40,000 bases of DNA, taken from NCBI RefSeq assembly GCF_024347395.1, contig NZ_AP025472.1:1564465-1604464 (forward strand), in the 5' to 3' direction. The stretch's first letter is position 1. Every line of letters starts with the position of its first letter. The stretch comes from Vibrio cortegadensis. GTDB lineage: Bacteria > Pseudomonadota > Gammaproteobacteria > Enterobacterales > Vibrionaceae. The notes under the pieces are model-generated. The model made no database searches and had not been told where the DNA came from. It saw only the letters and a list, made by a program, of their open reading frames with translations. The translations under genes were made by a program, and so were the position numbers. This document shows positions 19,892-38,845 of the stretch, piece by piece.

Positions 19892-19929
19892 TTTGAAAAT
19901 CCTCTTCCTGTCTTATCCCTTTATTGTAG

Positions 19930-20956: not shown

Positions 20957-22106
20957 TAAATTCGATAAATCCATTCGAGCGGTTAAGCCTTACAAGCCAC
21001 GCGATAAGCATCAATTCAAAGTTGATCACAAAGCATTAAGTGACACTGTGACACCTGTTTTTATTGACCACTTAGCATGGTCGATGCCGATACGTTCACT
21101 TTCTTATTTGGATGGCGCTCTAGATAAAGATTATGTCCCTTACATGATGCCTGTCTTCCATCAACCGAAAGGTTTAACGGCTGAACAACAAAACGAATAC
21201 GTAAAACGTTATCAGCAAGAATTCTATTTTCGAATGAATGTGTGCTTTGAATTGTTCATGCAAAAAGAGTTTGGAATGTTCCTTTCTCCTATGCGTGGCC
21301 GTGGTCTTCATGGTTATGAGGATTCAATGACTATCTTTGACATCACCAGAACGCATGAACTTGGTTTTGTGGGAATCGGTGGTAACAACGACACCATATA
21401 CATTCAGATTAATGGTACTGGTTGCCAATACCTTTTTAATAAGACTACGCCAGCTCGTGTTCATTGGTTACTGACTGAGATTTTTGTAGTGCCTTCCCTA
21501 TCCCGCCTTGATTTGGCTGTGGATGATTTCACTGGGAATTTCGACGCTAAATACGCTGAACGCTGTTGGTATGAAAAAGCTTTTAAATCTTCGCCTGACG
21601 CTCGTCGCCAAGGTTCAATGACACCTCACGTTAAATATAACGATGGTGGTTCACTGGATGAGGAAGCCACTTTAATCGGTAGCCGTTCTTCTACTCGCTA
21701 CTGGCGTATCTATAACAAAAAGTTCGAAAGAAAAATTACTGACCCTGATGTGGTTTGGTATCGGAATGAAGTGGAGCTTAAAAAAATCTCCGTCGATTTT
21801 CTCTCTGACATATCAGCGTCGTTCGCGGGTCTTTGTGACTTCGCGGCCTCTATCGAACCGACACCACCCAAACGTCACGACACCATAAAGAAAAAAGCGA
21901 TTTTGGACATTATGGGGAAAGTGGCGTGGGCAAGAAAGCAATGCGGAAAAACCCTTTCAGAAGTTATCGACTTTTATAACGGTGACTTAGAAAAAGCGTT
22001 TGGTCACTTAGTGCCTGACAAATACAAGACAAGAACGATTGATATGCCAGACGTTCATAAATCATTGGTTCAAGCGCATCTAGGCATAATCGACGCCCCT
22101 TTTTAA
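20946..22106 (+). CDS. Rolling-circle replication initiator (Rep_trans / gene II-X, RstA/Cri-like)
   Basis: Start moved to MSADKFDKS (ATG at 20946, GGAG 10 nt upstream). Motifs LSRLDLAVDDFTG and TLIGSRSSTRYWRIYNKKFE...WYRNEVELKK match the family pattern I remember for filamentous-phage and plasmid Rep_trans proteins. Confidence 0.8.
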   Translation: MSADKFDKSIRAVKPYKPRDKHQFKVDHKALSDTVTPVFIDHLAWSMPIRSLSYLDGALDKDYVPYMMPVFHQPKGLTAEQQNEYVKRYQQEFYFRMNVCFELFMQKEFGMFLSPMRGRGLHGYEDSMTIFDITRTHELGFVGIGGNNDTIYIQINGTGCQYLFNKTTPARVHWLLTEIFVVPSLSRLDLAVDDFTGNFDAKYAERCWYEKAFKSSPDARRQGSMTPHVKYNDGGSLDEEATLIGSRSSTRYWRIYNKKFERKITDPDVVWYRNEVELKKISVDFLSDISASFAGLCDFAASIEPTPPKRHDTIKKKAILDIMGKVAWARKQCGKTLSEVIDFYNGDLEKAFGHLVPDKYKTRTIDMPDVHKSLVQAHLGIIDAPF

Positions 22107-22121
22107 TCGGAGAAACACACT

Positions 22122-22499
22122 ATGAGTACAGCAACTGCCTTTTTCGTACATGGCATTAAACACACTATCTTCAAGAACTCGGGCAATGCATCGGCTTCCA
22201 TCTACGTTGGCCGCGCATTGAAAGACTTTTCAAACGACAACATGGAAATCAAAGCGGCGGGTTACTTTGACAGTATTGAAGAATTTGAAAAGAACCGCTT
22301 TAAACATTTGGCTATTGAGGAAGTTTACGCTGAGAAAGTGATTAACAGCCGCGCTTTCGTCCCTTATCAGCAATATGAATTACGCACTGCGCCTATGCCT
22401 GATAACCCAATGCAATCGCACGTTGTTGAGATTATTCCTGTTGATGCAGAAGTTAAAAAGCACTTCATGGAATCCATGAAACAAACACCAACTAAATAA
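22122..22499 (+). CDS. Putative ssDNA-binding protein (gene V analogue), assigned by position only
   Basis: 125-aa soluble protein directly after Rep, where inoviruses place their ssDNA-binding protein. No motif-level support. Confidence 0.35.
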   Translation: MSTATAFFVHGIKHTIFKNSGNASASIYVGRALKDFSNDNMEIKAAGYFDSIEEFEKNRFKHLAIEEVYAEKVINSRAFVPYQQYELRTAPMPDNPMQSHVVEIIPVDAEVKKHFMESMKQTPTK

Positions 22500-23078: not shown

Positions 23079-23090
23079 TTGGATTTAATT

Positions 23091-24578
23091 ATGAGTATTA
23101 AACAAAGCATTACTTTTTTATTTTTATTCTTGGGTGTTTCGTTTAATGCTTCGGCATATTTTGAAAATTATAAGGGTGAAAAGTTTGATTCTTTAGATAC
23201 GGCCTTAACATCATATTTAAATTCTTGTGAGGCTAATGTTTATACCGGGCGGGCTTCTTATATTAAATTCATTGATGGCAGGGTTTCTTCTTCAACTTCT
23301 CTTTACTTAAGGTATTACACTTATACAGATTCAAATTGTTCCAATCTTTATACTGGGGCTAACAATTGGACAACTATTTCTTTCACAAATAATGAATGTC
23401 CTGTTGGTGAAACGTTCAATCAAACTACTGGCGAGTGTGAATCACCTCCTGTATGTACAGATGATCAAGTTTTAGATCCAAACACTGGTGAGTGTGCAGA
23501 GATTCCCTTTTGCAAACGTCAATCTACTTTAGAAGCTATTTTTTCTGAGGAACAAGCTTGTGCGGCTTCAAAAGGTATTTTTAATCATAGCTGTGATGAA
23601 TTCCTTGATAAGTTAGATATGAAATGTACACAGCCTACTGAGTGTGTCATTGGTATGCCAAACTATCCTGATTGTTTGGGTGATTTAAACCCTACAGACC
23701 CACTTACACCGCCTGACGATTTTAATCCTGACCCTTCGAACCCTTCTACTCCTGCGCCTCCATCATTTGATAAAGATGAACCCGATTCAGTTACGCCAGA
23801 TGACACCACTGATAAGGCTGTATTAACGGCTTTACAAAATTTGAATCGTGATAATAACAAAGCTTTTACAGCATTAAATACAGATTTGAATACTGGCTTT
23901 ACCTCGTTAGATAACAAACTTAAAACACTGAATAAATCCAATGATGCAATTGGTAAAGCTATCAAAGAGCAATCACAACAAGATGTTGCCATTCATAACG
24001 CTCAAACCTTATTAATGACTCAACAAACTGGTGCCATTATGAATGGTACTACACAGGTAGTTCAGGGGCTTAATACTCAAACAACACAGCTAAAAGGTTC
24101 TCTTGACGGTGTTGCTCAAGCTATTGGCAATTTACCGTCACAACTAAATGGTGATGTTACTAGTCAAGGTTGTTCTTCTTTTAATTGTACTGGTAGTGCT
24201 CCCAGTTGTTTTCTAGCTAAAGAACGCTGGAGAGTTAATTGTGATGAATTAAAGAATGAAGAATCTGCAACTGAGCAAGGTGCTTTGTTGACTGATACTT
24301 TTCAGGCGTTAACTGAATCAGCTACTGATGAACATGGTGCTTATACCAGTGTATTTACTGATGCCAATGGTTCTGTTGATGAAATGCTTGATGCTTATAC
24401 GTCTGATAATGGTTTCAGCTTTTCTTCTGGTTGTCCTTCACCTCGCACGTATGATTTAAAAATTGCGGTTTGGTCAATTGATTACACTCCTTTTTGTACA
24501 CTAGCTCTCGTATTTCGTGGGCTTCTTTTAGCTTCCGCCTCAATAGCTTCTTTTTTAATGGTAGCTAAATTCATGTAA
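23091..24578 (+). CDS. Minor coat / host-adsorption protein (pIII-like)
   Basis: It has a signal peptide (MSIKQSITFLFLFLGVSFNASA), a Cys-rich N-terminal region, a Pro/Asp-rich linker (DPLTPPDDFNPDPSNPSTPAPPSFD) and a C-terminal membrane anchor. This is the standard pIII architecture and position. Confidence 0.7.
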   Translation: MSIKQSITFLFLFLGVSFNASAYFENYKGEKFDSLDTALTSYLNSCEANVYTGRASYIKFIDGRVSSSTSLYLRYYTYTDSNCSNLYTGANNWTTISFTNNECPVGETFNQTTGECESPPVCTDDQVLDPNTGECAEIPFCKRQSTLEAIFSEEQACAASKGIFNHSCDEFLDKLDMKCTQPTECVIGMPNYPDCLGDLNPTDPLTPPDDFNPDPSNPSTPAPPSFDKDEPDSVTPDDTTDKAVLTALQNLNRDNNKAFTALNTDLNTGFTSLDNKLKTLNKSNDAIGKAIKEQSQQDVAIHNAQTLLMTQQTGAIMNGTTQVVQGLNTQTTQLKGSLDGVAQAIGNLPSQLNGDVTSQGCSSFNCTGSAPSCFLAKERWRVNCDELKNEESATEQGALLTDTFQALTESATDEHGAYTSVFTDANGSVDEMLDAYTSDNGFSFSSGCPSPRTYDLKIAVWSIDYTPFCTLALVFRGLLLASASIASFLMVAKFM

Positions 24579-24603
24579 TAAAAATAACTCATAGGTGATT
24601 TTT

Positions 24604-24984
24604 ATGGGATTCGTATATGGTGCCCTTTCTCTTGTTTTTACTTGGTTACGCAGTGCAATGCCTTGGCTTCTCGGTGCTGTCGGTGCTTCATTTTCTAACT
24701 GGATTGTAAGCGCGGGGTTTGGTGTCGTTGTCTTCTCTGGCTTTAATATTTTGACTAGTCGCCTCATTGGTACGGCTGTCAACTCGCTGAACGGCCTTGG
24801 TGATATTGGTGGGTTTGGTGCTGATATTGTTATGCTTCTCGGCTATATGTGGCTAGATAAAGCTCTTAACCTTGTTATTTCAACGGGTGCTTTTTTAATG
24901 GCGATTAAAGGAGTTCGTCAAGGTATTGCTATGCGTCAAGCTTGGTGGAAACCAGGTCAGAAAACTGGAGGAATGGAAGGTTGA
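24604..24984 (+). CDS. pVI-like minor coat membrane protein
   Basis: ~126-aa very hydrophobic protein between the pIII-like and Zot-like genes (an alternative GTG start lies at 24595). Confidence 0.6.
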   Translation: MGFVYGALSLVFTWLRSAMPWLLGAVGASFSNWIVSAGFGVVVFSGFNILTSRLIGTAVNSLNGLGDIGGFGADIVMLLGYMWLDKALNLVISTGAFLMAIKGVRQGIAMRQAWWKPGQKTGGMEG

Positions 24985-26312
24985 TTTATTTAAGAACTGG
25001 ATTGCCAGGGGCGTCTAAAACTCTTAACTCTTTACGTGAAATTGTGCTTTCTCACGATTCGGGGCGTGAGTATTACTATACAAACATCAAATTACTTATG
25101 TTGGATATTGATGTGGCCTGCTCGTTTTCTGGTTGGTATTACGGCTGGTATTTTCCAAACTTAAAAGACAAGGCTAGTATTCGTAAATTATCTAAGATAA
25201 TGAAACCAATTCACGATGATGGTGAATTTATCACTCTAAATGATGTTCCTTGGCTTCGCTCTCAATATGATAGCCACAATCATTTTGAGACTTGGCTTTA
25301 CTGGGTTCGTCGTGTTTATCCTAAGAAGAAACTTGAGAAGCTAGAATCTATTCTTGATGCTGCTCCTGAAGATACACAAGATAAGTTTGATTTAGTTCGA
25401 CCTCTTAATCTTGATTTTAGAAACTTTCCAGACCCAAATGACTGGCCTACTTTACCTAAGCGTTCAGTCATTCTGGTTGATGAGGTTCAACAATTCTTTC
25501 CACCTCGTGGTGTTGGTTCTCGCGTACCAAAGGCTATAGCAGCCCTTGAGACTCATCGACATGGTGGTTATGACCTTCATTTTGTCACACAAGACAGAAC
25601 CCTTTGTGATGCTAATTTACGTAAATTAGTTGGTCGCCATGTTCATTATTTCAATGCTCTTGGTGGTAAAAAGGTAACTCGCAAAGAAGCACCTAAATGT
25701 TTTGATCCTAATGATTATCATCAGTCTCAAACTGCTTCCAAAAAGATGATTAGCCATGATAAAAAGTTCTATGGTGTTTATTGGTCTGCTGAAATACATA
25801 CCCATAAGTTCAAATTTCCATTCATGGGCTTTGTTGCTATTTTCTTTTTATGTTTGATCCTTTATTCCGCTTATTCTCTATCATCTCAATTATTTGGTGG
25901 TTCAGACTCCAGTTCTCCAGCTGCGCCAACTCAACCAACGCCAATACAAACTGATTCACCTGACATAACAGAAAATCCTGTTGCGGATTTTGTTGATGAG
26001 TTATTAACTGATGTTTATATATCAGGCTCTGTTGTAGAACAGTTCTCTGATGATGTTGTTTACCACTATACATTTGTACGAAGTTCTGACGGTGCTGTTT
26101 TCTATCCCGAAGCAATGGAATTAACACTTGATCCATTAACGCCATGTTTGGCGAATATTAGAATTGGTGAATTGATACGGCCTGTTACTTGTAATCCGTT
26201 TTATGTTCGTGATTCATGGAAAGAAGAAGATATTGAAGATTCAGAAGATGGACAAGCAATTGCCAGTGCTGAGAGTTCAGAGAAATACAAACCCAATATT
26301 AAACTATTCTAA
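24981..26312 (+). CDS. zot: Zot-like assembly ATPase (pI homologue)
   Basis: Likely TTG start at 24981 (TTGA overlap with the upstream stop, GGAGGAATGGAAGG upstream). Similar to CTX-phage Zot as I remember it: GLPGASKT versus GAPGSYKT, VILVDEVQQFFPPR versus FLFIDECGRIWPPR, and ETHRHGGYDLHFVTQ versus DMHRHHGWDICLTT. It has a central TM and a C-terminal periplasmic domain. Confidence 0.85.
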   Translation: MIYLRTGLPGASKTLNSLREIVLSHDSGREYYYTNIKLLMLDIDVACSFSGWYYGWYFPNLKDKASIRKLSKIMKPIHDDGEFITLNDVPWLRSQYDSHNHFETWLYWVRRVYPKKKLEKLESILDAAPEDTQDKFDLVRPLNLDFRNFPDPNDWPTLPKRSVILVDEVQQFFPPRGVGSRVPKAIAALETHRHGGYDLHFVTQDRTLCDANLRKLVGRHVHYFNALGGKKVTRKEAPKCFDPNDYHQSQTASKKMISHDKKFYGVYWSAEIHTHKFKFPFMGFVAIFFLCLILYSAYSLSSQLFGGSDSSSPAAPTQPTPIQTDSPDITENPVADFVDELLTDVYISGSVVEQFSDDVVYHYTFVRSSDGAVFYPEAMELTLDPLTPCLANIRIGELIRPVTCNPFYVRDSWKEEDIEDSEDGQAIASAESSEKYKPNIKLF

Positions 26313-26885: not shown

Positions 26886-27488
26886 TTAGTAATTTTGAGC
26901 TCTTAATTGTGCAATTTTTCTTGCATACTCAGCATCAATTCTGTGAATTTCACGATCCCTTTCACGCTGTAGTCTTTTTATCTCTCGATTAATGTTCACG
27001 TAATTATCAGCCTGGTACTGGATATCACACCTGCTACTTACATCATTAATCGCTTTGTTCGAACCTGACAAATTGAATGATGTATTCATCTCACGCCTTC
27101 CAAAGACATGCACTTGCACATAAGCAGTTGTACCTTGCTTTAATTCATAAAGGATCCGTTTATCTACATTTCTAATCGCTCCTCCTTTATAGGAGGATGT
27201 GAACATATTTCCTTTCAAGTTATACACTCGGCCATTATCAATCTTAATTCTAAAATCGACACTTTGATTTGGTGTCGCAATATTATCTTTACCTGAAAAA
27301 GTTAGAAACAAATCTTTATCATAACGCCCTGAATCACAACGAAAACCCAATGAATTACCATGTGCATAGGTTGTACGCTCATACACCTGCTTGTTATTCA
27401 TATTATCAAAACGCATAGTTTCATTAAACGATGCATTACATACACTTGAAAACATACAAATGGTGAACCCCAAACGAAACCATTTCAT
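26886..27488 (-). CDS. Exported protein with a C-terminal charged coiled coil, function unknown
   Basis: 200 aa with signal peptide MKWFRLGFTICMFSSVCNA/SF, a probable beta-rich body with two Cys, and the tail INREIKRLQRERDREIHRIDAEYARKIAQLRAQNY. It is divergent from the rexA-like gene and very AT-rich. Confidence 0.6.
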   Translation of the reverse strand: MKWFRLGFTICMFSSVCNASFNETMRFDNMNNKQVYERTTYAHGNSLGFRCDSGRYDKDLFLTFSGKDNIATPNQSVDFRIKIDNGRVYNLKGNMFTSSYKGGAIRNVDKRILYELKQGTTAYVQVHVFGRREMNTSFNLSGSNKAINDVSSRCDIQYQADNYVNINREIKRLQRERDREIHRIDAEYARKIAQLRAQNY

Positions 27489-27742
27489 TAATTAAACCTC
27501 CTTACAGTTAAATTTGAGCAACTGATTGCACTATAAGATTTTCTAGGTTGCTCTTATGAGATTTATCTCAAAAATATACAAATAGGCCCAATGTCAACCT
27601 TAGTAAAAGAACAGCACTATATTCACACTGATTTTGTTAACTTTTTTTGTACAGCTCTATTATTATTGAATGACATATCTAATGTTGAGGAGTACCATGC
27701 GAATAAATAAAATTAATAATTAATGACTTAAAGGTTGTATAC

Positions 27743-28687
27743 ATGCGAGTTAGTTACTTTGGCTACCATTTGAACAATATAGACAATCAACACAAAACAT
27801 TGTTTGATATTCGCCCTTTTTTGCATTCTTTTTGTGCTTTAGATGCTGTTCAGTATAAAAATAATTTCACACACTCAGGCGAGCATTTGTATCTTTTTCC
27901 CGTTCATGGTGATGTATTTATGTTCGTAATGACACGTAGCAGTGACATTATCCGAAAAGTAAACACTAGAGAAATTACGGTAGAACAAATTCGTGATCTT
28001 TTAGGCGAAGATAACCAACTGGGGTTTGCTTCATATGTCCTTATCACTGAAAATTGCTTTGGATTCGGTTCAACTTTACTTGCACCTAAATCTGATGTTT
28101 TTATAGAATTTATTAACACAATCTTCATATCTCTTGGTATTGTTAATTGGAAATTAATTCCTTTTGCTTTAACTCATCAAGCTACACGTGCAGAAGCCAT
28201 GGAAATGTCGATTATAGGAACCACTGTGATCGAAATTTCGAAGGAAAATACTTTTGCAGAAGATTTCTTGAGACAATTAGGGATGACTACTGAGGAAACT
28301 CATAATTTAGAAGGCTTTGAATTGACATTTAAGCCTCGGTCAAGACAAAACATTAAGCCCGTTATTACAAACGTATTACAGCAGGTACCCGATGATGGCA
28401 TTACTAAACTGATTATCAAAGCTAAAAATGAAGTATCAGGGCACATGACCGATTTGTACCTAGTTAACTCTGGAATCTTACAAGATGATGTTAATAACTC
28501 TAGTGATCTGGCCATTGCCAGAAACATGGTAACTAAAAAAACCAACAACACCCTATTAACTGAAAAACTTGAGGAGTTTACACAAAATGAAGACCTCTCG
28601 GAAAGCACTATTGACGCTATTTCTCGTTATAATCACATCACTGCCTGGACCGATTTTGTATCTACTGTACAAACTGTTAGTGAATAA
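27743..28687 (+). CDS. rexA: RexA-like abortive-infection sensor protein
   Basis: 314 aa. Several blocks resemble lambda RexA as I remember it: HLYLFPVHGDVFMFVMT versus YLYIHKIDGKTFLFTKT, LGFASYVLITENCFGFG versus LGFPSFLFVEGDTIGFA, FELTFKPRSRQNIKPV versus LDIVIKPKFKRDIKKV, and IIKAKNEVSGHMTDLYL versus SLRAKDEAGDILTEHYL. Confidence 0.7.
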   Translation: MRVSYFGYHLNNIDNQHKTLFDIRPFLHSFCALDAVQYKNNFTHSGEHLYLFPVHGDVFMFVMTRSSDIIRKVNTREITVEQIRDLLGEDNQLGFASYVLITENCFGFGSTLLAPKSDVFIEFINTIFISLGIVNWKLIPFALTHQATRAEAMEMSIIGTTVIEISKENTFAEDFLRQLGMTTEETHNLEGFELTFKPRSRQNIKPVITNVLQQVPDDGITKLIIKAKNEVSGHMTDLYLVNSGILQDDVNNSSDLAIARNMVTKKTNNTLLTEKLEEFTQNEDLSESTIDAISRYNHITAWTDFVSTVQTVSE

Positions 28688-29051
28688 GGTATTAATTGAA
28701 CCTATTGTTTTAGTCGAACAGAAAACAAATATTGCCATTATATTAGCGACATTTGCGTTTACGATGATGGGTTTTTTAGCGGCTGTTATTACTATTTTCT
28801 TTTCGTTCGCTAAATCGAGAACGTTCAAGAAATTCAGCCGTGAAGGTCGTTTTGGCGTATTTTTTACTACTTATTATTACTGTATTATTTCACTCGCTCT
28901 AACCATGTGCTTTGCTTTGGTTACTTTAGGTAAAGGCACCTCTATATGGGCTATGCAAACAGCACTGATTACGACAGTAAATAGCTTATTTCAAATCTGC
29001 TTGATTACTTTTACTATCATTAATTTGAGTAAAAGGGCGATGAAGGAATAG
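28587..29051 (+). CDS. rexB: RexB-like four-TM membrane protein
   Basis: 154 aa from the ATG at 28587 (GAGGAG at 28571-28576). It has four hydrophobic helices, and the loop and tail resemble lambda RexB from memory (FAKSRTFKKFSREGRF versus IGSRTRRLAKIREYGY; FQICLITFTIINLSKR versus IHICILVFQLYNLTRE). It overlaps the rexA-like 3' end by 101 nt in another frame. Confidence 0.65.
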   Translation: MKTSRKALLTLFLVIITSLPGPILYLLYKLLVNKVLIEPIVLVEQKTNIAIILATFAFTMMGFLAAVITIFFSFAKSRTFKKFSREGRFGVFFTTYYYCIISLALTMCFALVTLGKGTSIWAMQTALITTVNSLFQICLITFTIINLSKRAMKE

Positions 29052-29055
29052 ATCT

Positions 29056-29074
29056 AGGCTCCTTTCTGGAGCCT
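29056..29074. terminator. Hairpin between convergent rexB-like and xafT-like genes
   Basis: AGGCTCC-TTTCT-GGAGCCT has a 7-bp stem. There is no strong T-run, so confidence is moderate to low. Confidence 0.4.
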
Positions 29075-29079
29075 TCGTA

Positions 29080-29451
29080 CTAACTGTTCATTATTAACGC
29101 AATACTACGAGCATATTTAAGCAACTTTGACATTGTTTTTACATCTAATTCTGCTTGAATTTCTAACAAAGCAATTCCAGTTAAAATCTCTTGTGGGGTC
29201 ACTAATTGGCCTGTCGGTAGTTCCAGTTTATCATTGCGCATGATGAATAGATTCCAATTATCTGATGGGGCAAGCTCTTTACCTTTATACATTTTCATTA
29301 ATCGCCGACACTCTGGCGGAATAGCTTTTCCTGCGTCCCAAAGCTTGACCGTCCTCACACTTTTAAAACATAGTTCAGCCGTCTTTTCTATACTAATTCC
29401 ACAAACTAATTCACGAAAAATATAATTTTTAGTCATTTCGTGGTACTTCAT
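29080..29451 (-). CDS. HTH + DUF3653-like protein (XafT-like candidate Xer activation factor), copy 1
   Basis: Likely ATG at 29451 (MKYHEMTKNY). It has an HTH-like segment TAELCFKSVRTVKLWDAGKAIPPECRRLM, then W..F......L.LPTGQLVTPQEI. It is a paralogue of the gene at 29779 and starts ~50 bp from dif-like site B. Confidence 0.6.
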   Translation of the reverse strand: MKYHEMTKNYIFRELVCGISIEKTAELCFKSVRTVKLWDAGKAIPPECRRLMKMYKGKELAPSDNWNLFIMRNDKLELPTGQLVTPQEILTGIALLEIQAELDVKTMSKLLKYARSIALIMNS

Positions 29452-29503
29452 TGATAACTCTCTCAAATGAGAAAGATATTATAAAAAGTGCGTATGCAAC
29501 TTG

Positions 29504-29532
29504 ATTTACCATAAGGGCGCATAATACGCACC
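29504..29532 (-). other. dif-like site B with a 7-nt spacer (attP/dif hybrid junction)
   Basis: The plus strand reads ATTTACCATAA-GGGCGCA-TAATACGCACC. The XerC arm is identical to site A. The XerD-type arm has one mismatch (C for A). The orientation matches site A. Confidence 0.7.
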
Positions 29533-29778
29533 GAGGGATTGTTTATTAACATTTGGTAAAACATTGATTAACGCATACATAAGTAATTGATACTTATGCC
29601 GAATTTATATTTAAACCCTATTTAATAACGTTTTGAAATACTTATGATTACTGGCGCTTGCTTTACGTAATCACAGCAAAAAGTCTCTTTTTCCACTGAG
29701 CGACATTTTGTCACGTGAATTGTTAAAAAATCATAAGAAAAAAATATTTCGTCAGTTATTTTATTTGTGAGGCAAATC

Positions 29779-30201
29779 ATGTTTTATGAGTCATTTAAAG
29801 TTCTGTTTTGGCGTGAGTTTACCTCTCACCGCCAAGGTGCTGAGTTTTTCCATGTGAAGATTGTCACAGTTCGACGTTGGCTAGACGGCAAAATCCCTGT
29901 CAATCCGATGGCTGAAAAACTCTTAATCATCAAATCACTTGGTTACTTGCCTAATGATATGCGTTGGCGTGGCTTTCGTATCTGTGAAAAACGTGCGGTG
30001 CTTCTTACCCCAACTGGACGCGAGTTCAGCCCTAAAGAATTAGAAAGCTTTGTGTTTTGGCGTGATGAACATCGACAATTGGTTGAGCAACATGGTCATG
30101 TGGATTACCCAAAGGTTTACCCTGCAAAAGAAAATGTGTTGCCGTTTCGTGGCGGTCGCCGAATGCAAGCCGCCCCGTGGATACCGACTAAATTTAAATA
30201 G
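29779..30201 (+). CDS. HTH + DUF3653-like protein (XafT-like), copy 2
   Basis: ATG at 29779 (MFYESFKVLFW, GAGG 6 nt upstream). It has AEFFHVKIVTVRRWLDGKIPVNPMAEKLLI, then MRWRGFRICEKRAVLLTPTGREFSPKELE. It is divergent from copy 1 across site B. Confidence 0.6.
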   Translation: MFYESFKVLFWREFTSHRQGAEFFHVKIVTVRRWLDGKIPVNPMAEKLLIIKSLGYLPNDMRWRGFRICEKRAVLLTPTGREFSPKELESFVFWRDEHRQLVEQHGHVDYPKVYPAKENVLPFRGGRRMQAAPWIPTKFK

Positions 30202-30204
30202 ACG

Positions 30205-30232
30205 TAAAAAAGCCCGCATTAGCGGGCTTTTT
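30205..30232. terminator. Bidirectional intrinsic terminator
   Basis: AAAAAA-AGCCCGC-ATTA-GCGGGCT-TTTT between convergent genes. Confidence 0.85.
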
Positions 30233-30238
30233 CTTTCC

Positions 30239-31216
30239 TCAGAAAGGAATATCATCATCAAAATCCGAAGAAGGTGGCGGTGGCGGCACTTGTACTGTTC
30301 GCTTTTCAATGGTAATAAACGCAGAATTCCAATTTTCAGGCGTGTAAACTTTAAGCGATTTATTCTCGTCAAAAATCTCTTCTGATATGGTTAACTCAAA
30401 TGAGTTATTGTACCAAGACAAATCGCTTCCAAAAGGAAATTCATACTCTTTATAGCCATATGTTTTCAAAATTTCACCAAGTTCTTGAATATTTTGAAAA
30501 TAAACCCGATGACCTATTCCTAGCTTAGTTCTCAACTCACTAAATGCTGGGTGGCTGTTCATCAGGATATTTTGAATTGCGTCACTTCCTCTATTTTTCT
30601 CTTCGCTTAAAAAAGTAACCAACGTTTTTAAAGTAGCTGAGGTTCTATTTATCTCATCAATTAAATTAACTTCTTTTCGTCGAGAGCTCTCACTCAAAAG
30701 GCTCTGAAAAAGTCCTGCCCACTGCTCTTTCAAATGATTAGTGATATCAACTACAGATTCAAATGCTTGTATTTGATTATTGTTAGGAAGTGAATGTATC
30801 TCATCGAGGAATTGAAAAATTCTATTATCATCTACTGATGCATACTTGATGCTGTCATTATCTTTATTTACTTTATATGTTTGATATTCAGCGTATACCG
30901 TTTTTTCAATAAAAATATAAAGCTGCTTTCCTTTTTTAACAGCCGTAGTTAACTCCACATTTGATACGGAGTGACTGCTATTCCCATGTTGAGATTGGGA
31001 GCCAAATCGACCGCCAATGACACCAACGACAATATCGCAAATTTCAATTTCTTTATAGCAATACTCTTCTAAACGTTTTTCTGAACCATAAGGAATATTG
31101 CCTTTTTCATTCAAAACCGGGTCATACCCTTGCTCTTTAATGAATCGCTCTAAATCATTTCTTATATATTTCAAGTCATAATAAGTCGAGCTTACAAAAA
31201 CACGGGGCTTTGCCAT
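30239..31216 (-). CDS. DUF4062 (TIR/deoxyribosyltransferase-like) N-terminal domain protein with an SSB-type C-terminal tail
   Basis: Likely start MAKPRVFVSSTYYDLKYIRNDLERFI (ATG at 31216; the ORF is open to 31252). The pattern VFVSST..DL...R..L......GY.PV..E.......E.C..EI..CD..VGVIG.R.G...S....E...A...GK matches DUF4062 as I remember it. The C-terminus verified from DNA is TVQVPPPPPSSDFDDDIPF*. Confidence 0.7.
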   Translation of the reverse strand: MAKPRVFVSSTYYDLKYIRNDLERFIKEQGYDPVLNEKGNIPYGSEKRLEEYCYKEIEICDIVVGVIGGRFGSQSQHGNSSHSVSNVELTTAVKKGKQLYIFIEKTVYAEYQTYKVNKDNDSIKYASVDDNRIFQFLDEIHSLPNNNQIQAFESVVDITNHLKEQWAGLFQSLLSESSRRKEVNLIDEINRTSATLKTLVTFLSEEKNRGSDAIQNILMNSHPAFSELRTKLGIGHRVYFQNIQELGEILKTYGYKEYEFPFGSDLSWYNNSFELTISEEIFDENKSLKVYTPENWNSAFITIEKRTVQVPPPPPSSDFDDDIPF

Positions 31217-31296
31217 GTTAAACCTATAATGTAAAAATTGATAATTAATCATATCACTTTAATCTCATACATAAGAATGATGACTCATACAAATAA

Positions 31297-31332
31297 TAAA
31301 AAAGCCGAACCCCATCACGGAGTTCGGCTTTT
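31297..31332. terminator. Bidirectional intrinsic terminator separating the DUF4062 cassette from the corticovirus-like late genes
   Basis: An A-run, then AGCCGAAC (31303-31310) pairing with GTTCGGCT (31322-31329), then TTTT. Confidence 0.8.
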
Positions 31333-31462
31333 GGTTTCCAGTGCAGCAAGCAAAAGCGCACTAAGGTGTTTAATGATTTATAAAACAACCACTTGAACGT
31401 TAACAATGTGTGCGTTAGATGTAAACCATATGGCACGTATGTTTTGAAATGACTCGCACGCC

Positions 31463-31648
31463 CTAGCCCTTTTCTAATGTTTCTAGTACCAACACACGGT
31501 CAGAAACGGCGCGCAATCCCTTTGATAACTCTTGAATGATGTGGTTTTGGTTTCGGATGTTTATGATCATCAAAATACCCAACACCAAAAACTGAGGTGA
31601 AATGCCCCATTCCACCAAGGCGTTAAACAGCGTGCTTTCCATCATCAC
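31463..31648 (-). CDS. Small membrane protein, lysis-cassette accessory candidate
   Basis: 61 aa with one TM (ISPQFLVLGILMIINI). It overlaps the upstream holin-like gene and is the last gene of the operon. Confidence 0.4.
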   Translation of the reverse strand: MMMESTLFNALVEWGISPQFLVLGILMIINIRNQNHIIQELSKGLRAVSDRVLVLETLEKG

Positions 31649-31850
31649 CGCCCTTGCCTTTCAATTCATCCCGGAATGCTTCCCACAACCCAACCACCGC
31701 AGGAATGGCAAGACCAACCGCACCGCCAAGATTTACGCCCGTTTGGGTAATTTCAGCACTGAATAAATGACCGTAGCCCGAAGATGCCGCAATCACTGAA
31801 CCAAGCAGCACAAGACCGCGCCACGTTGATGTTTGTTTAAGTTTTAGCAT
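31623..31850 (-). CDS. Holin-like two-TM protein
   Basis: 75 aa with two hydrophobic helices and a charged C-terminus (DELKGKGGDDGKHAV), downstream of the putative muralytic gene. Confidence 0.45.
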   Translation of the reverse strand: MLKLKQTSTWRGLVLLGSVIAASSGYGHLFSAEITQTGVNLGGAVGLAIPAVVGLWEAFRDELKGKGGDDGKHAV

Positions 31851-31862
31851 GTGTATTCCTTA

Positions 31863-32318
31863 CTATGCGAGTTTGACGCCTTGCATGGCATCGCTGAATG
31901 AGTAATGGCGACCCACTTCCATGATTGACATAGAGTGCAGCACTTTAGCCAATAGTTGGTCATCGTTTAGGTTGATGGATTCATTGACGCCAACACCGAC
32001 CTGTTTTGCTACGAACTGTGCGTAATTCTTCGTATCATTTTCTACTGGCGGTGCGAATCGGTTAATGATTTCGTTTAGATTGTCGAGTCCATGCGCCCGT
32101 TGATAGGTTCGCAAGGTTTTAGCGCCCGCCCGAAAGCCATATTTATGATGGGTATAGCTTTCAAATTCAGCATCACGGGAAAAGCTTGTTTCCCCTTGCC
32201 AATCGTTGCCTTTTCGAATGTTCAGCGGGTTATTGTTGCGAATTCCGCGGATGGTTTTTTTTGTCATATAGAGTGCAAAGCCCCCAAAGAAAATGAAGAT
32301 AATCAGATATAAACGCAT
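31863..32318 (-). CDS. Membrane-anchored phage protein with an RNNNPLNIR motif (putative muralytic/structural)
   Basis: 151 aa with an N-terminal TM and the motif GIRNNNPLNIRKGNDWQGE, which recurs in phage virion-associated or cell-wall-active proteins as I recall. Function not certain. Confidence 0.45.
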   Translation of the reverse strand: MRLYLIIFIFFGGFALYMTKKTIRGIRNNNPLNIRKGNDWQGETSFSRDAEFESYTHHKYGFRAGAKTLRTYQRAHGLDNLNEIINRFAPPVENDTKNYAQFVAKQVGVGVNESINLNDDQLLAKVLHSMSIMEVGRHYSFSDAMQGVKLA

Positions 32319-32320
32319 GG

Positions 32321-33340
32321 TTACACCTTGTAAAAATCAAACCCTGTCGGCATGGATGAATATTGAAAACTCATTTGCATGGCTTCAAGCTGTGCCGCCG
32401 ATGGGATATGGTCAACGGGATATTGGAACACCTTATAATCGCTGCCATGCTCGGTGATGGTTTGCACATGATAGCCAGATGCCAACATATGACGCGCCAT
32501 GCCAAACGGCGCATGAATTGCGTTGTGGTTAAAGCGAATCAAGCCCGCGCCCAAATCTTCAAAACCTATGGGTTTCATACAATCGGTCGCTTGGTAGTAT
32601 GGCGGCGCATGAGTAAATTCAAGCTTGGCAAGGTCGGCATCATCTGCCACAAACCCACACACGCCACGTTGAAGCCCAACAATGCCGGAATTTCTGACTT
32701 CCAAATACAACGCAACGTATGACGGTTGTTCAACCTGTACATTATTTTTCAGCGCACCAGAATCACAAGTCACAAAGCCGTCACCCGCAAAATCGGTGTG
32801 AATTTTTGAAGCTACTTTGTCGCCTAGCGTATGGCTGCCATCTTCACTCATGTGAATGAATCGAAAACCCACTTCCACCTCCGCGCCCGCCAATGCCATG
32901 ACATTGAACGCCGCACGAACAGACTTGCTTTCATCATTTTGTGGTGCGACCGGACGCAACACTTGATACATGGTGAAACCTTGGCACATGATTTGTGCAA
33001 AGTGCCGATTGGGTAACGTGTTGAGGTAATAATTACCCACACGGGACACGGGCGCGGTAATGCCCGCACCTGGTTGAACTTGAATTGCCCAACCATGCGC
33101 CAACATGAATTCAGCGCGCCCACCTAATGAGGTGACATTTAATGAAAATGGACGGTCAGAGCGTGATTGCGTGGTGACAAAACCACGGGCGCACATGCCA
33201 TGAAAATGACCGTTATCAATGAGGTTTGTGACTGCACCACCTGCCAACTTGCCCAACTCTTCGGCAAGGTATTCAATTTTGTTTCGGCTACTGCCATGCG
33301 GCAAATTTTTAAAAATTTCGTTCATGGGGTAAAGCTCCAT
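32321..33340 (-). CDS. Putative vertex/spike (receptor-binding) protein
   Basis: 339 aa, similar in size and position to the PM2 spike protein P1. There is no motif-level support. Confidence 0.35.
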   Translation of the reverse strand: MELYPMNEIFKNLPHGSSRNKIEYLAEELGKLAGGAVTNLIDNGHFHGMCARGFVTTQSRSDRPFSLNVTSLGGRAEFMLAHGWAIQVQPGAGITAPVSRVGNYYLNTLPNRHFAQIMCQGFTMYQVLRPVAPQNDESKSVRAAFNVMALAGAEVEVGFRFIHMSEDGSHTLGDKVASKIHTDFAGDGFVTCDSGALKNNVQVEQPSYVALYLEVRNSGIVGLQRGVCGFVADDADLAKLEFTHAPPYYQATDCMKPIGFEDLGAGLIRFNHNAIHAPFGMARHMLASGYHVQTITEHGSDYKVFQYPVDHIPSAAQLEAMQMSFQYSSMPTGFDFYKV

Positions 33341-33350
33341 AATTTGAGTG

Positions 33351-34010
33351 TTAAGACTCTAAGATAAATACGCGGTCAGTTGCAGCGCCCGTGAGTGCAA
33401 TGAGTGCGGAAGATTCAATATCAATCCGCTCACCCGCACTAAGTGGGTAAGCATTGTTAATCAACACATCACCTGTATTGGCGGTTGCTGCCTTGATGGT
33501 CACTTTGAAACGTGATGAATCAAAAGGAAGTTCAACGGGCAATGCTGAATCTTGTGCATTGATGCTTTTACTTCTCTTGAGTACCACAGGCGTTCGCTGT
33601 GAGACTTTAATCACTTGGTCGGGCGCAATTTCAACGGGCGGTAATGTTTCAAGGCTAACGGTTTGACCTGCTGCAATTTCCACCGCAGGAAGTGAATCAA
33701 TCGACGCGGTTAAGTGTTGGTTTTCTGCAATCACCATTGCGGGCATCACGCTTACTTCAAGCTGTTGCCCTTCCATTGGTGGCGTAAAATCTCCCACGCC
33801 ATGCTCAAACACCAAGCGACCAACGCCCGTGATGAAAATGCGCCCAAAGCGACTACCTGTGTTTTTATACAGTGATTTTTGCGTAAGCGTAAAAACCGCA
33901 CCTGTGGACTCAATTTCAATCTGAATTTTGCCCGTGGATAACTCCACAAACAGCCATTCAGAATCAAGCGTGACAGGGATTTTTTGTCCTTCAATAAGGT
34001 TCAATTCCAT
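33351..34010 (-). CDS. Putative structural protein
   Basis: 219 aa with a beta-rich composition. Its start overlaps the upstream stop by 1 nt. Confidence 0.35.
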   Translation of the reverse strand: MELNLIEGQKIPVTLDSEWLFVELSTGKIQIEIESTGAVFTLTQKSLYKNTGSRFGRIFITGVGRLVFEHGVGDFTPPMEGQQLEVSVMPAMVIAENQHLTASIDSLPAVEIAAGQTVSLETLPPVEIAPDQVIKVSQRTPVVLKRSKSINAQDSALPVELPFDSSRFKVTIKAATANTGDVLINNAYPLSAGERIDIESSALIALTGAATDRVFILES

Positions 34011-34426
34011 TACTTAACCGCCTTATAAGTGACAAAACCCAACACGGCAGCAACGAACATCATTAAGTACAAATTCATTGAATTTTGCTTACTTTGCCCG
34101 CCGTCCTTATTGAATTTGGCAAGCTCCATCATCGCGTTAATGTTTTTTGTGTTTTGCGTGGCTTGATTACCCGCAAGCCCTGCCATCATTTGCAAATTTT
34201 CACTGTTGCTTGAGCTGTATTCCTCCAACACACCGGAGGCAAAATCTGTGTTGATTTCGTGCATGTTTTCGGCGGCTTGAATTGCGCCGTGGTCGGTAGC
34301 GGTCACATTGATAGTGGAGTCATTGACTCCACTAATCGCCGTCCCTAAGTTGTCACCACTAATGGCATTTTGACCGCTAACGTTAGTGGTTTGGGTTTTG
34401 TTACTGGATTTGGATTTTCCACCCAT
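34010..34426 (-). CDS. C-terminally anchored virion membrane protein candidate
   Basis: 138 aa, Ser/Asn/Gly/Gln-rich, with C-terminal TM LYLMMFVAAVLGFVTY. Confidence 0.45.
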   Translation of the reverse strand: MGGKSKSSNKTQTTNVSGQNAISGDNLGTAISGVNDSTINVTATDHGAIQAAENMHEINTDFASGVLEEYSSSNSENLQMMAGLAGNQATQNTKNINAMMELAKFNKDGGQSKQNSMNLYLMMFVAAVLGFVTYKAVK

Positions 34427-34428
34427 GA

Positions 34429-34800
34429 TTACACCTTCATTTCCATGTGGGTTACGTCACCACATGCGTGTTCTTCGGTACTCAGGCGGCGACACAATCG
34501 CGCCACCAATGGAAAATAGGTTTCTGCTGAAATAGACGATAATCCCGCGCTTTTTACGTAGGCTTTCAACTCTCGCATTGCCGGAATAACGCCGCGTCCA
34601 GAAACGCCCCAAAGAAAGTAAGAATGACCGATAATCTCACCCGCCACCGTGACACGGTAACTATCATCAGATAACTCATAAAGGCTTACGCGCCCTGCGT
34701 TCACCTCATGTTTGAGTTTTTCAAATTCAGCCGGACAAGCTCGAAATGCTACTTTCAACCGCGCCAATGCGCGGGGACTATCAGAAACCAATTCAATCAT
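34429..34800 (-). CDS. Hypothetical phage protein
   Basis: 123-aa soluble protein with an ATGA overlap on the upstream gene. Confidence 0.4.
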   Translation of the reverse strand: MIELVSDSPRALARLKVAFRACPAEFEKLKHEVNAGRVSLYELSDDSYRVTVAGEIIGHSYFLWGVSGRGVIPAMRELKAYVKSAGLSSISAETYFPLVARLCRRLSTEEHACGDVTHMEMKV

Positions 34801-34991
34801 CTTTTAAGTGCCACCAAGGCAATCACTGCCACTATGCTCAATAACAGCCAAGGCTTTGCGCCTTTTGAGCCTCCCATACTAATCCCGCCCACGCTTTGCC
34901 CTGCGTTGGTGGTATTGGCGGCGGTCGATGGTCCCGCAGAACCACCCGTGAAACCGCCACCCCCTGTTAAACTGGTTAAACTGCCTAACAT
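34797..34991 (-). CDS. Gly-rich small membrane protein
   Basis: 64 aa with a Gly-rich N-terminus and C-terminal TM WLLLSIVAVIALVAL. It resembles the small internal-membrane proteins of PM2-type viruses. Confidence 0.45.
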   Translation of the reverse strand: MLGSLTSLTGGGGFTGGSAGPSTAANTTNAGQSVGGISMGGSKGAKPWLLLSIVAVIALVALKR

Positions 34992-35000
34992 TCGTCCCCC

Positions 35001-35135
35001 TTAAAAGAACTTGAGCATGGCAAGAATCGCCACCAATAGCGCCGCGAACCATAAGAGGTTTTTGGCGCCATCACTGAGACTAAACCCGACCCATACACCA
35101 GTAAGCGCAACCACCGGATAAACAATCAATGGCAT
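35001..35135 (-). CDS. 44-aa two-helix membrane peptide (not in the ORF track)
   Basis: My translation is MPLIVYPVVALTGVWVGFSLSDGAKNLLWFAALLVAILAMLKFF. It fills the gap between flanking genes exactly. Confidence 0.4.
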   Translation of the reverse strand: MPLIVYPVVALTGVWVGFSLSDGAKNLLWFAALLVAILAMLKFF

Positions 35136-35136
35136 G

Positions 35137-35478
35137 TTATTTCCCCTTCACTGCGAAATAGACCGCGCCCGCCAATACCAAGAACCCGCCACCAATGGCT
35201 AAATACATGCCGTAGTTATTCGGCGATTGGCGATAAACCACATCGCCATTAGGTTGTTGGTAATCGTTGCCGTCCCCACGGTGTGCGCTTGGGTTCGCTG
35301 AGTTAGATTGTTGCGCGTCTTCGTTGAGTTTGTTGGTGATAAGGTCGGGCGCAATGTCCCCGACTAAATCCACCGCACCACCAATGAGTTCACCGCCACT
35401 TTCTAAGATGCTTTCCCACCACGAACTTGACGAGGACTCGTTAAAAATATCCATATCGGTTTCCTTTGGTACTGGCAT
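35137..35478 (-). CDS. Small virion membrane protein candidate
   Basis: 113 aa with C-terminal TM MYLAIGGGFLVLAGAVYFAV. Confidence 0.45.
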   Translation of the reverse strand: MPVPKETDMDIFNESSSSSWWESILESGGELIGGAVDLVGDIAPDLITNKLNEDAQQSNSANPSAHRGDGNDYQQPNGDVVYRQSPNNYGMYLAIGGGFLVLAGAVYFAVKGK

Positions 35479-35486
35479 GACGCCCC

Positions 35487-36320
35487 TTACTTGGCTTGTG
35501 GTGAGATTTCGCCAACTTGCTCAATGGCTTCGATAATCACAGGCACGCTTCCCGCGCTTGCTTTCTCTAATTCAAATTGCAGTTGTTTAGCGGCATTGGT
35601 AGAAAGGCGACCTTCAACACCAAAACCAGTACGAACAAAATCAAGCGTGAACCATCCCGCGTTTTGCTCTAAACCCGCCACGGCAAGGTCAAAAGCGTTA
35701 TCTGCTTTAGATACGTTGATTTCTTCACGCTCGTCACGCATGACACGAACACGGTCAATCGTGTCGTCTTTGAAGTGAATACGTTTGATTGAAAGGAACG
35801 GTGAACGCTCGGCAAAATCGAACGGAGTGCGACCGGACGCCGCCGCGTACCACGTTAATGAATACAGACGCGGCAAATAAATGCGGCGAGATTGGGCGGC
35901 GGTTGTGTGGGCGCGTGCTTTGATTGATGGCGCGGCTTGGTCGGCTTTGGCTTTAAGCTGAATGTAAAGCATCCAGATTTCACCCTGTAGCGTCACCAGT
36001 TCACCCGTGCGAACACCCGCCTTTGTGCGAAGCGTTAGATCAGCAAATGGGATGATGTAGCGCCCTTTTTGCGTGAACTGTTTGCGGTGCTCTTGAAAGT
36101 CCACCAAATCTTGACCTGTCACACCAATGATTTCTTTACCGTTTAACTTGAGCGTGACGCGCTCAATGTCTGCTGGGTCAAGAATGTCAGTGACTAATTC
36201 AATGTTTTGGTAAGTGGGACCCGTTACCACGCGCAATGTTGCCTGATTACCCCAGTTAACACCTTCAACCGGGTCTAACTCACGTGGGCGTGGGTTAAAT
36301 GGTGTGTTCATCATTTCCAT
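35487..36320 (-). CDS. Major capsid protein, PM2 P2-like (double jelly-roll lineage)
   Basis: ~277 aa from MEMMNTPF. Blocks resemble PM2 P2 as I remember it: PTYQNIELVTDILDPADIERVTLKLNGKEI versus QTYEVIDLRYSGVTPSQIKNVRVELDGRLL, FTLDFVRTGF versus YTIDFMLEGD, and a similar C-terminal LQFELEK...IIEAIEQVG. The size matches. Confidence 0.65.
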   Translation of the reverse strand: MEMMNTPFNPRPRELDPVEGVNWGNQATLRVVTGPTYQNIELVTDILDPADIERVTLKLNGKEIIGVTGQDLVDFQEHRKQFTQKGRYIIPFADLTLRTKAGVRTGELVTLQGEIWMLYIQLKAKADQAAPSIKARAHTTAAQSRRIYLPRLYSLTWYAAASGRTPFDFAERSPFLSIKRIHFKDDTIDRVRVMRDEREEINVSKADNAFDLAVAGLEQNAGWFTLDFVRTGFGVEGRLSTNAAKQLQFELEKASAGSVPVIIEAIEQVGEISPQAK

Positions 36321-36457
36321 TAGAACCACCCCTTATCACCATTAATCGTGTCTTTTACAGCGCCTAACGCTGACACGTTGTTAATAAGGGCAAGAATGCC
36401 AACCGTAAGCAATACCGTAGTGCCTAGGGGAATAAGCGTGCTTTTATTTAGTTTCAT
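36320..36457 (-). CDS. 45-aa membrane peptide, first gene of the structural operon (not in the ORF track)
   Basis: My translation is MKLNKSTLIPLGTTVLLTVGILALINNVSALGAVKDTINGDKGWF. It has a GGAAAGG RBS and a TAATG overlap with the capsid gene start. Confidence 0.4.
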   Translation of the reverse strand: MKLNKSTLIPLGTTVLLTVGILALINNVSALGAVKDTINGDKGWF

Positions 36458-36541
36458 AAACCTTTCCAGTTTGTGAGTGAATAAATCATTCAATAGAGAG
36501 GCTTTAAGGTTGGCGATTTTGAGGAAATTAAACAGAGGGAG

Positions 36542-36576
36542 TAACCTAATAGGTTAAGGCTTTAACCTATTAGGTA
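36542..36576. promoter_or_regulatory. Twin palindromic operator-like sites
   Basis: TAACCTAATAGGTTA (36542-36556; AACCTA-A-TAGGTT is a perfect dyad) and TAACCTATTAGGTA (36563-36576). The centres are 21 bp apart. They lie in the 200-bp gap between the structural operon and a divergent small ORF. Confidence 0.55.
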
Positions 36577-36659
36577 AAGAGGATAGAAACGAACGATTGC
36601 TTTTATATTTCTTGTTTGCGATATACAATACGCAAAACCATAAAACAGCGTAGATATGC

Positions 36660-36944
36660 ATGTCTGACCTAAAGTTTTCTCCCACTAAATTGTTTAACCT
36701 AGCATCGAAAAAAATTAATGATTACCTTGATGAAGCACTTGAGAATGAAAGAATTAAGCAAGAAAACCATCCACAGCGGCTTGAAGAAATAAGAATTGAA
36801 GGCGAATTTCGACGCAAGCAGCAAGCAGAACGACACAAACAAAAAATAGCAAAAATACTCAGAGAGACTCCTCAGGTTTCCCCAGAAGACCAAGCCATAT
36901 ATGATGACTTTGTTCGAAAATTGGAAAAGGAAGGGAAAATGTAG
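36660..36944 (+). CDS. Charged coiled-coil hypothetical protein on the opposite strand (regulator or moron)
   Basis: 94 aa, Lys/Glu/Arg-rich and AT-rich compared with the surrounding prophage. It is the only plus-strand gene inside the minus-strand train. Confidence 0.4.
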   Translation: MSDLKFSPTKLFNLASKKINDYLDEALENERIKQENHPQRLEEIRIEGEFRRKQQAERHKQKIAKILRETPQVSPEDQAIYDDFVRKLEKEGKM

Positions 36945-36973
36945 GCGACAAGCTATTTTATCGCCTAATAACA

Positions 36974-38780: not shown

Positions 38781-38845
38781 GTGTTCATTTTCCTTTTTTC
38801 TAGCCAATGAGTGATGTTTTCCCCTGCAAGCAACCCCAAACGGGA

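Follow-up and report, generated by a model that had tools for sequence, protein, structure and literature searches.

We conclude with high confidence that the dif-like site at 29504-29532 (site B) is the distal attP/dif junction of a 9,993-bp VGJ-type ("CTX-I") prophage, which inserted at the chromosomal dif beside a resident, tailless double-jelly-roll (DJR) prophage. By synteny, the target is probably chromosome 1. Site B separates two stacked Xer-exploiting elements (IMEXs), of which the older one lies further from dif. The arrangement of the junctions is biology already described in Vibrio and calls for no new mechanism. All positions refer to the window, the whole stretch of 40,000 nt that was analysed, unless another contig is named.

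Structure and uniqueness of site B

Two dif-like sites in the window are central to the analysis:

29504-29532, plus strand: site B, ATTTACCATAA (29504-29514), GGGCGCA (29515-29521, 7 nt), TAATACGCACC (29522-29532)
19512-19539: site A, ATTTAACATAA-TACACA-TAATACGCACC (XerD arm, 6-nt centre, XerC arm), the proximal junction of the inovirus prophage

Site B has the make-up of a dif-like site, in which a 7-bp centre separates two 11-bp arms (29 bp in total). It also fits the att motif NYKNWMCATAA(N)6-12TAATRYGHABY of Ma & Zhang 2025 (PMC12715192). An earlier note on this DNA had described it as a second dif-like site with a 7-nt spacer, and the sequence reads as described. The comparison of the arms made in that note is likewise correct: A and B have the same XerC arm, with a single change in the XerD-type arm. 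The two sites have a 16-mer in common, CATAATACGCACCGAG, located at 19527-19542 in A and 29520-29535 in B. It comprises 2 spacer nucleotides, the 11-nt XerC arm and 3 nucleotides of flank (GAG). The identity had been described as covering the two central bases next to the XerC arm, which is the case, and 4 nt past the arm, where only 3 are found. In the overlap, A and B share only TG (CA on the plus strand), next to the XerC arm.

We scanned both strands of the 40-kb window for both dif arms separated by spacers of 5-8 nt, with 200 shuffles as a null. Site B is the only near-match to site A, with 1 mismatch, and the runner-up has 6 mismatches. None of the 200 shuffles contained a match with 2 mismatches or fewer. 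A matrix scan for equally good sites had been proposed in the earlier note, and site B stands alone in it. For the 16-mer CATAATACGCACCGAG, allowing up to 2 mismatches, the chance expectation is 0.01 matches, and two or more matches did not occur in any shuffle. Exact-match searches of IMG/VR and of JGI metagenome contigs returned no copy of the site B sequence.

Promoters and terminators around B were also considered. One weak minus-strand promoter-like site (9/12) overlaps B; 5 such sites were found against 3.4 expected, which is not above background, and the candidate was rejected.

A complete filamentous phage between sites A and B

The interval between sites A and B, 9,993 bp from crossover to crossover, encodes a complete filamentous phage. 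It contains no ORF of recombinase or integrase size or family. The main features are as follows:

19514-19891, minus strand: repressor-type gene (RstR/ORF154/Vpf148 homologue; DUF3693 and HTH; Pfam DUF3693 2.8e-13, phrog_638 1.9e-41)
20892-22106, plus strand: rolling-circle replication initiator, RstA/pII-like (Pfam Rep_trans 1.3e-17, phrog_453 6e-110)
22122-22499, plus strand: ssDNA-binding protein, DUF1293, pV-like (Pfam 8.9e-45, phrog_1410)
23079-24578, plus strand: pIII-like adsorption protein (phrog_1698 1.3e-65)
24595-24984, plus strand: pVI-like minor coat protein, DUF2523 (Pfam/PHROGs)
24942-26312, plus strand: Zot/pI assembly ATPase (Pfam Zot 2.5e-13, phrog_1041 1.1e-81)
26886-29051: hypervariable cargo region between zot and the Xaf gene, matching in position the pHVR of PMC12715192
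26886-27488, minus strand: unannotated 200-aa ORF with a hydrophobic N-terminus and a coiled-coil-like tail
27743-28687, plus strand: RexA (Pfam RexA 1.7e-58, PADLOC 3e-62)
28680-29051, plus strand: RexB (PADLOC 8e-23)
29080-29466, minus strand: XafV-like gene, homologue of VGJΦ ORF136 and VfO3K6 Vpf121 (likely start 29451)

As expected of a VGJ-type element, this integrase-less inovirus is bounded opposite B by a canonical 6-bp dif in direct orientation. The 3' end of the repressor-type gene runs into site A, and the prophage form of the protein has 125 aa. The presence of RexA and RexB documents this abortive-infection pair as inovirus cargo.

The XafV-like gene starts about 40-50 nt from site B. 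Its 128-aa product is 54.9% identical to ORF136 (6e-48) and 62% identical to Vpf121. Homologues are present in 74 Vibrio inovirus records (tblastn, phage records), and records of the protein itself were found in the same strain only. ORF136, encoded beside attP, is the Xer activation factor XafV and raises attP-VGJ integration about 10,000-fold (10.64898/2026.06.12.731946); this function comes from a single 2026 preprint on a V. cholerae phage.

A draft assembly of the same strain, GCA_030410015.1, breaks within the inovirus core at 20583 and 27769, and not at A or B. Because the contigs break inside the core, the assembly suggests a second related inovirus core, or a replicative form, elsewhere in the genome.

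Reconstruction of attP restores a phage ORF

When the phage side of B (XerD-type arm and spacer) is joined to the XerC arm of A, the repressor-type ORF grows from 125 to 151 aa. The 151-aa circle-form ORF aligns end to end (1-151) with Vpf148 (61.6% identity, 4e-67) and is 43.7% identical to VGJ ORF154. Both the circle form and Vpf148 end with NEV(P/S)RND*. Site B shows the VGJ-type gene context, in which it adjoins an ORF136 (XafV) homologue and an ORF154-type gene crosses attP (55% and 44% identity, respectively). The predicted circle junction reads ...CTTGATTTACCATAAGGGCGCA joined to TAATACGCACCGAGATAGCGGAGATG..., and the predicted site left after excision reads ...CAATTTAACATAATACACA joined to TAATACGCACCGAGGGATTGTTTATT.... 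An exact-match search of IMG/VR gave no hit to the predicted circle junction.

The two forms of the protein have different C-termini: the 151-aa circle form ends with ...CALMVNQVAYALFIISFSFERVINEVPRND and the 125-aa prophage form with ...CVLC. It is possible that integration switches the repressor-type protein between two isoforms. The attP-crossing ORF is conserved in VGJΦ (ORF154) and VfO3K6 (Vpf148).

The 7-nt spacer is conserved at homologous positions

We compared site B with the attP sites of sequenced phages, a check that had been suggested earlier. VGJΦ (TTTTACCATAA-GCCGACA-TAATGCGAAGT), VfO3K6 (ATTCAACATAA-GCGCCCA-TAATGCGCACT) and Vf33 (..-GCAGATA-..) all carry a 7-nt spacer at the position homologous to B. 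In VGJΦ, ORF136 (XafV) is encoded on the minus strand, the annotated functional attP lies about 25 nt past its start codon, and ORF154 reads across attP. Nucleotide similarity to phages is almost nil, with megablast against GenBank phages covering about 2% of the query.

Species-representative genomes were scanned with the XafV-like protein, yielding 28 loci with identities of up to 68%. All but two belong to named Vibrio, the exceptions being a contig labelled Shimia and a gammaproteobacterial MAG. A site with a 7-nt spacer is found at the same position in 25 of the 28 loci, 61-90 nt upstream of the XafV-like gene (277 nt in two). Seven loci also contain a canonical 6-nt dif with a perfect XerD arm, located 6.4-9.4 kb away in the same orientation.

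The spacers were compared in 20 distinct pairs of a 7-nt site and its partner dif, IMG/VR prophages included, against 5000 shuffled pairings. The identical run at the XerC-proximal end of the spacer has a mean length of 2.0 nt, compared to 1.27 ± 0.15 nt after shuffling, and the observed value was reached in 0/5000 shuffles. At the XerD-proximal end, only 0.25 of 3 nucleotides match. Overlap homology to dif is limited to the bases beside the XerC arm, as in VGJ-type sites. The restriction of dif homology to the XerC side, which had been pointed out for site B, is thus found in the window as well as across the 20 pairs. The XafV homologue, the 7-nt attPs of the relatives and the restored ORF together uphold the earlier identification of B as a VGJ-type attP/dif hybrid.

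A resident DJR prophage on the far side of site B

Site B lies between two different prophages. Its right flank is not bare chromosome, a point on which the earlier note did not remark, but a DJR prophage with the following features:

29533-40000, running off the window: dif-type DJR prophage (NO16/PM2-like, Vinavirales; GC 0.47-0.50; Pfam, PHROGs)
29767-30201, plus strand: XafT-like/p15 gene, DUF3653 (Pfam DUF3653 1.4e-20), 235 nt from B
30239-31216, minus strand: DUF4062 cargo gene, 325 aa, in the DJR cargo slot between p15 and the lysis (transglycosylase) gene
31863-32318, minus strand: transglycosylase
35487-36329, minus strand: P2 major capsid protein, PM2-type double-jelly-roll (Pfam P2_N 4e-49, P2_C 1.6e-38)
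36974-37699, minus strand: ATPase-like gene
38846 onwards, minus strand: Rep gene (Phage_GPA)
41964-41991 in window-equivalent coordinates (contig L035 6620-6647): site C, AGTGCGTATTA-TGTATA-CAGTGGTAATT, the far junction of the DJR prophage

Site C was located on L035, a draft contig of the same strain that is 100% identical to the window over 28161-40000 and extends past its end. Its XerC arm is perfect, its centre is canonical and its XerD arm is degenerate, a combination that is the signature of TLC-type integration. Past site C, the contig continues with the chromosomal genes for HDOD, MatP, a Lon-like protein, FabA and RMF. The DJR element measures about 12.4 kb; a size of 12.9 ± 1.0 kb has been reported for dif-type DJR prophages (PMC12715192). 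DUF3653 corresponds to the XafT family (PMC6744903), and the DUF3653 gene is 64% identical to the fNo16 gene beside the attP of that phage. With site C and the DUF3653 gene, the DJR element matches the definition of a TLC-type element. The DUF4062 protein has no PADLOC match and could be the product of an uncharacterised defence gene. Cargo regions beside Xaf-type genes carry defence systems (PMC12715192).

Joining the XerD arm and centre of site C to the XerC arm of B reproduces the attP region of fNo16 (MH730557) at 23/26 nt, between the same p16-like and p15-like genes. This indicates that the XerC arm of B and its GAG flank were inherited from the DJR phage attP.

Just past site C (L035 6573-6633), a stretch of 47 nt plus the XerC arm is 92% identical to the inovirus flank beside A. 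Its sequence indicates a putative relic of an older VGJ-type insertion, since almost entirely deleted. Because new elements enter at the active dif, as known from the literature, the order of insertion was the old inovirus (relic), the DJR phage and then the present inovirus.

Site B is flanked by a gene of the Xer-activation-factor type on each side, the left one XafV-like and the right one XafT-like (DUF3653), which had also gone unremarked. The DUF3653 gene, 235 nt away, could be taken to mean that its XafT-like product activated a TLC-type reaction at B, with a complete XerD-then-XerC exchange. XafT loosens the requirements on the site and increases attP-VGJ integration more than 100-fold (10.64898/2026.06.12.731946). 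However, what XafT enhanced on attP-CTX were XerC exchanges, for which XerD catalysis was dispensable (10.64898/2026.06.12.731946). The structure of B is also the opposite of the TLC signature: its XerD-type arm is near-perfect, with 1 mismatch, and its 7-nt overlap is unmatched on the XerD side. The degenerate XerD arm and matching 6-nt centre are seen at site C instead. In the window and in the related loci, the 7-nt spacer stayed wholly with the phage XerD arm. Furthermore, the DUF3653 gene belongs to the DJR element, and its fNo16 homologue adjoins the attP of that phage. We therefore regard a TLC-type origin of B as improbable and retain the VGJ-type origin.

The inverted repeat at site B is judged incidental

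The octamer GTGCGTAT at 29488-29495 (plus strand) is the exact inverted complement of ATACGCAC at 29524-29531. The earlier note had reported this repeat and placed its left copy correctly, but assigned the right copy to 29525-29532. It had further likened the potential hairpin to the folded ssDNA attP of CTX-type phages. If this were correct, integration would proceed from folded (+) ssDNA, with the hairpin of 29488-29495 and 29524-29531 forming the substrate, and would be irreversible. The repeat is uncommon: in related loci, exact inverted repeats of at least 8 nt in this geometry are found at only about 0.7% of random positions.

Several observations speak against the hairpin reading. Among the 28 sites at homologous positions, the 8-nt repeat occurs in the window only; the 27 relatives have mostly 3-5 nt (two have 7 and one has 6), similar to the null. 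The ssDNA fold of 29480-29540 has an energy of -7.9 kcal/mol (z = -1.6), and 12/200 shuffles are equally stable. The left copy lies in coding sequence: GTGCGTAT encodes part of the ..QVAYAL.. tail of the attP-crossing circle-form repressor ORF, and AYA recurs in Vpf148. The duplex would cover only the core of the XerC arm and leave the XerD-type arm single-stranded in the loop, so that no XerCD substrate would form. Finally, the pair of inverted dif-like sites about 90 nt apart that characterizes CTXΦ is absent, as is a conserved hairpin. We judge the 8-nt repeat to be incidental and the comparison with a CTX-like hairpin to be unsupported; folded-ssDNA integration is a highly improbable origin of site B.

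The idea that B resembles dif by chance, or is a duplicate of the chromosomal dif, with no tie to phage integration, has nothing in its favour except the likeness to dif and can be virtually dismissed, as B is the sole near-match in 40 kb (0/200 shuffles with 2 mismatches or fewer), occupies the conserved attP position beside a XafV homologue in more than 25 relatives, and restores an ORF across the reconstructed attP. A chance match as the origin of B is ruled out by the two-arm matrix scan and its shuffles.

Site A is a regenerated dif

The view that site A stays a dif agrees with our reading, in which A is, by sequence, a regenerated canonical 6-nt dif. Site B, with its 7-nt spacer and phage-derived flanks, does not have the properties of a functional chromosomal dif; site A fits instead. 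Strain GCA_013114135.1 (L003) shows 99.7% identity with the window up to 19538, the outer end of the XerC arm of A, and is unrelated beyond. The loss of identity at the XerC arm indicates that A is a recombination junction as well as a polymorphic insertion point. The dif of GCA_013114135.1 reads ATTTAACATAA-TATACA-TAATACGCACT.

Within the species, dif is polymorphic (L003 11935-12054 compared to window 19512-19560). The centre is TATACA in L003 and TACACA in the window, the XerC arm ends with ...CGCACT and ...CGCACC, respectively, and the DNA that follows is unrelated. Site C keeps the TGTATA (= TATACA) centre found in the L003 dif. The polymorphism is consistent with repeated IMEX traffic that rewrites the XerC arm and part of the centre.

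A conserved block is located at 19363-19435, on the chromosomal side of A, 60-100 nt past the XerD arm of dif. It contains two tandem XerD-arm-like elements, the 11-mer TTATGGTAAAT (19409-19419) and, after a gap of 4 nt, the 10-mer TTATTGTTAA (19424-19433), both inverted relative to dif. The second element reads TTATGTTTAA in most other species, compared to TTATTGTTAA in the window. The XerD-like repeats adjoin a hairpin (19363-19405) with a stem sequence that varies by species and a pairing that appears to be kept. Of 8 species compared, 7 have the block, and in 29/29 IMG/VR matches it lies beside a dif with a perfect XerD arm (window and loci L007, L013, L015, L016, L022, L032 and L037-L065), even though the intergenic DNA around it is not alignable. 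The hairpin block may simply be the terminator of the histidine-kinase gene with its T-tract, which would not account for the XerD-like repeats beyond the T-tract. Rfam gave no matches on the whole window, nor on 19250-19950 in a permissive search.

Proposed mechanism of integration

We propose that the dsDNA replicative form of the inovirus carried a 29-bp attP composed of the XerC arm GGTGCGTATTA, the 7-bp overlap TGCGCCC and the XerD-type arm TTATGGTAAAT. Host XerC would swap one strand pair where the XerC arm meets the overlap, of which only the first 2 nucleotides (TG) match dif. Since the 7-bp overlap is otherwise non-homologous, XerD exchange would be blocked and the Holliday junction would be converted to products by replication. 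The XafV-like phage protein probably boosted the reaction, perhaps with help from the XafT-like protein of the neighbouring resident prophage.

The predicted outcome at site A is a working dif, with the XerD arm of the chromosome, the 6-nt overlap and the XerC arm of the phage. At site B, the XerD-type arm and 7-nt overlap of the inovirus (29504-29521) would be joined to the XerC arm of the previous dif (29522-29532). That dif would have been rebuilt earlier by the TLC-type NO16/PM2-like DJR prophage, as suggested by the degenerate XerD arm at C and the DUF3653 gene. We infer the cutting recombinase, the replicative resolution and the parts played by the Xaf proteins from the literature. The parental origin of each arm is likewise deduced from the model and fNo16 rather than from sequence differences within the genome itself. 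Because A and B have identical XerC arms and 3 identical flanking nucleotides, the crossover is not mappable within the 16-nt identity.

The attP-VGJ site is 29 bp long with a 7-bp centre, and its integration involves XerC exchange and replication and is reversible (PMC4246890; 10.64898/2026.06.12.731946). The sites that flank integrated VGJΦ stay compatible, and XerC strand exchange serves for excision as well as for integration (PMC4246890). As VGJ-type integration is reversible, the earlier description of the junction as non-resolvable was too strong. The 7-nt non-homologous overlap should prevent the XerD/FtsK dimer-resolution pathway. Site B should be useless for FtsK/XerD dimer resolution, yet should be a partner for XerC-mediated excision with A.

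Implications of the stacked arrangement

The location of B between the XafV-type gene of the inovirus and the XafT-type gene of the DJR element raises the question of cross-talk. We consider it unlikely, albeit worth stating, that B is a live, cross-regulated junction and not a passive scar. The resident DJR activator may have promoted capture of the inovirus. If the junction is live, recombination between A and C could release an inovirus-DJR cointegrate that is packageable by either virion type. Such a molecule would resemble the VGJ-CTX hybrid phage, but across two viral realms, and cointegrates of this kind would allow the exchange of lysogeny modules that Ma & Zhang have proposed (PMC12715192).

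For annotation, the analysis precisely delimits two stacked prophages, which automated tools are prone to merge, fixes their order of insertion and identifies the working dif among the sites. It also adds a further natural example outside V. cholerae of a XafT-bearing element that lies deeper in the array than a VGJ-type phage, the order predicted by the Xaf-facilitation model.

Comparison with known systems

Site B closely resembles the attP-VGJ/VGJΦ junctions of V. cholerae (Campos 2003; Das 2011; PMC4246890; 10.64898/2026.06.12.731946). They share the 29-bp structure of 11 + 7 + 11, a XerD-type arm ending with ...TACCATAA and a GC-rich 7-nt overlap that matches dif only beside the XerC arm. 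In VGJΦ and in this prophage alike, the site is next to the ORF136/XafV gene, an ORF154-type gene crosses it, and a canonical dif is rebuilt on the XerD side. Differences from VGJΦ can be observed as well. Protein identity is only 55% for XafV and 44% for ORF154, and the host is another species of Vibrionaceae. The XerC arm of this phage is the GT variant GGTGCGTATTA, unlike that of VGJΦ. The prophage is larger, about 10.0 kb compared to 7.5 kb, because of the cargo region that contains RexAB.

The closest sequenced relatives are the V. parahaemolyticus inoviruses of the f237/VfO3K6/Vf33 type ("CTX-I", PMC12715192), in which the Xaf-like protein is 62-66% identical and the repressor-type ORF 62% identical. 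They have the same order of rstR ... zot, pHVR, xaf and attP, with a 7-nt-spacer attP, and differ from this phage in their cargo and in the near absence of nucleotide similarity. With CTXΦ attP(+), site B shares the homology limited to the XerC side and, by the proposed mechanism, the XerC-only exchange at dif. In contrast to CTXΦ, there are no paired inverted attP1/attP2 sites and no conserved hairpin; site B is a fully paired dsDNA site.

The stacking of the two prophages has direct counterparts. CTX-I inoviruses are organized as rstR ... zot, pHVR, xafT, attP and dif-type DJR phages as p16 ... p15, and the combination of CTX-I and dif-type DJR elements is the commonest two-unit array in Vibrio (27/63; PMC12715192). 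The same pair of elements is represented by these tandem arrays (PMC12715192) and by NO16-like phages (PMC9966536; fNo16 MH730557). As here, each unit of the arrays has a repressor gene at one end (rstR or p16) and a Xaf-type gene at the other (xafT or p15) (PMC12715192). The known arrays and this one also share dif-like junctions, cargo hot-spots beside the Xaf-type genes and a DJR attP with a degenerate XerD arm. There is no qualitative difference between them, and the present array adds the 47-nt relic of an older inovirus past site C.
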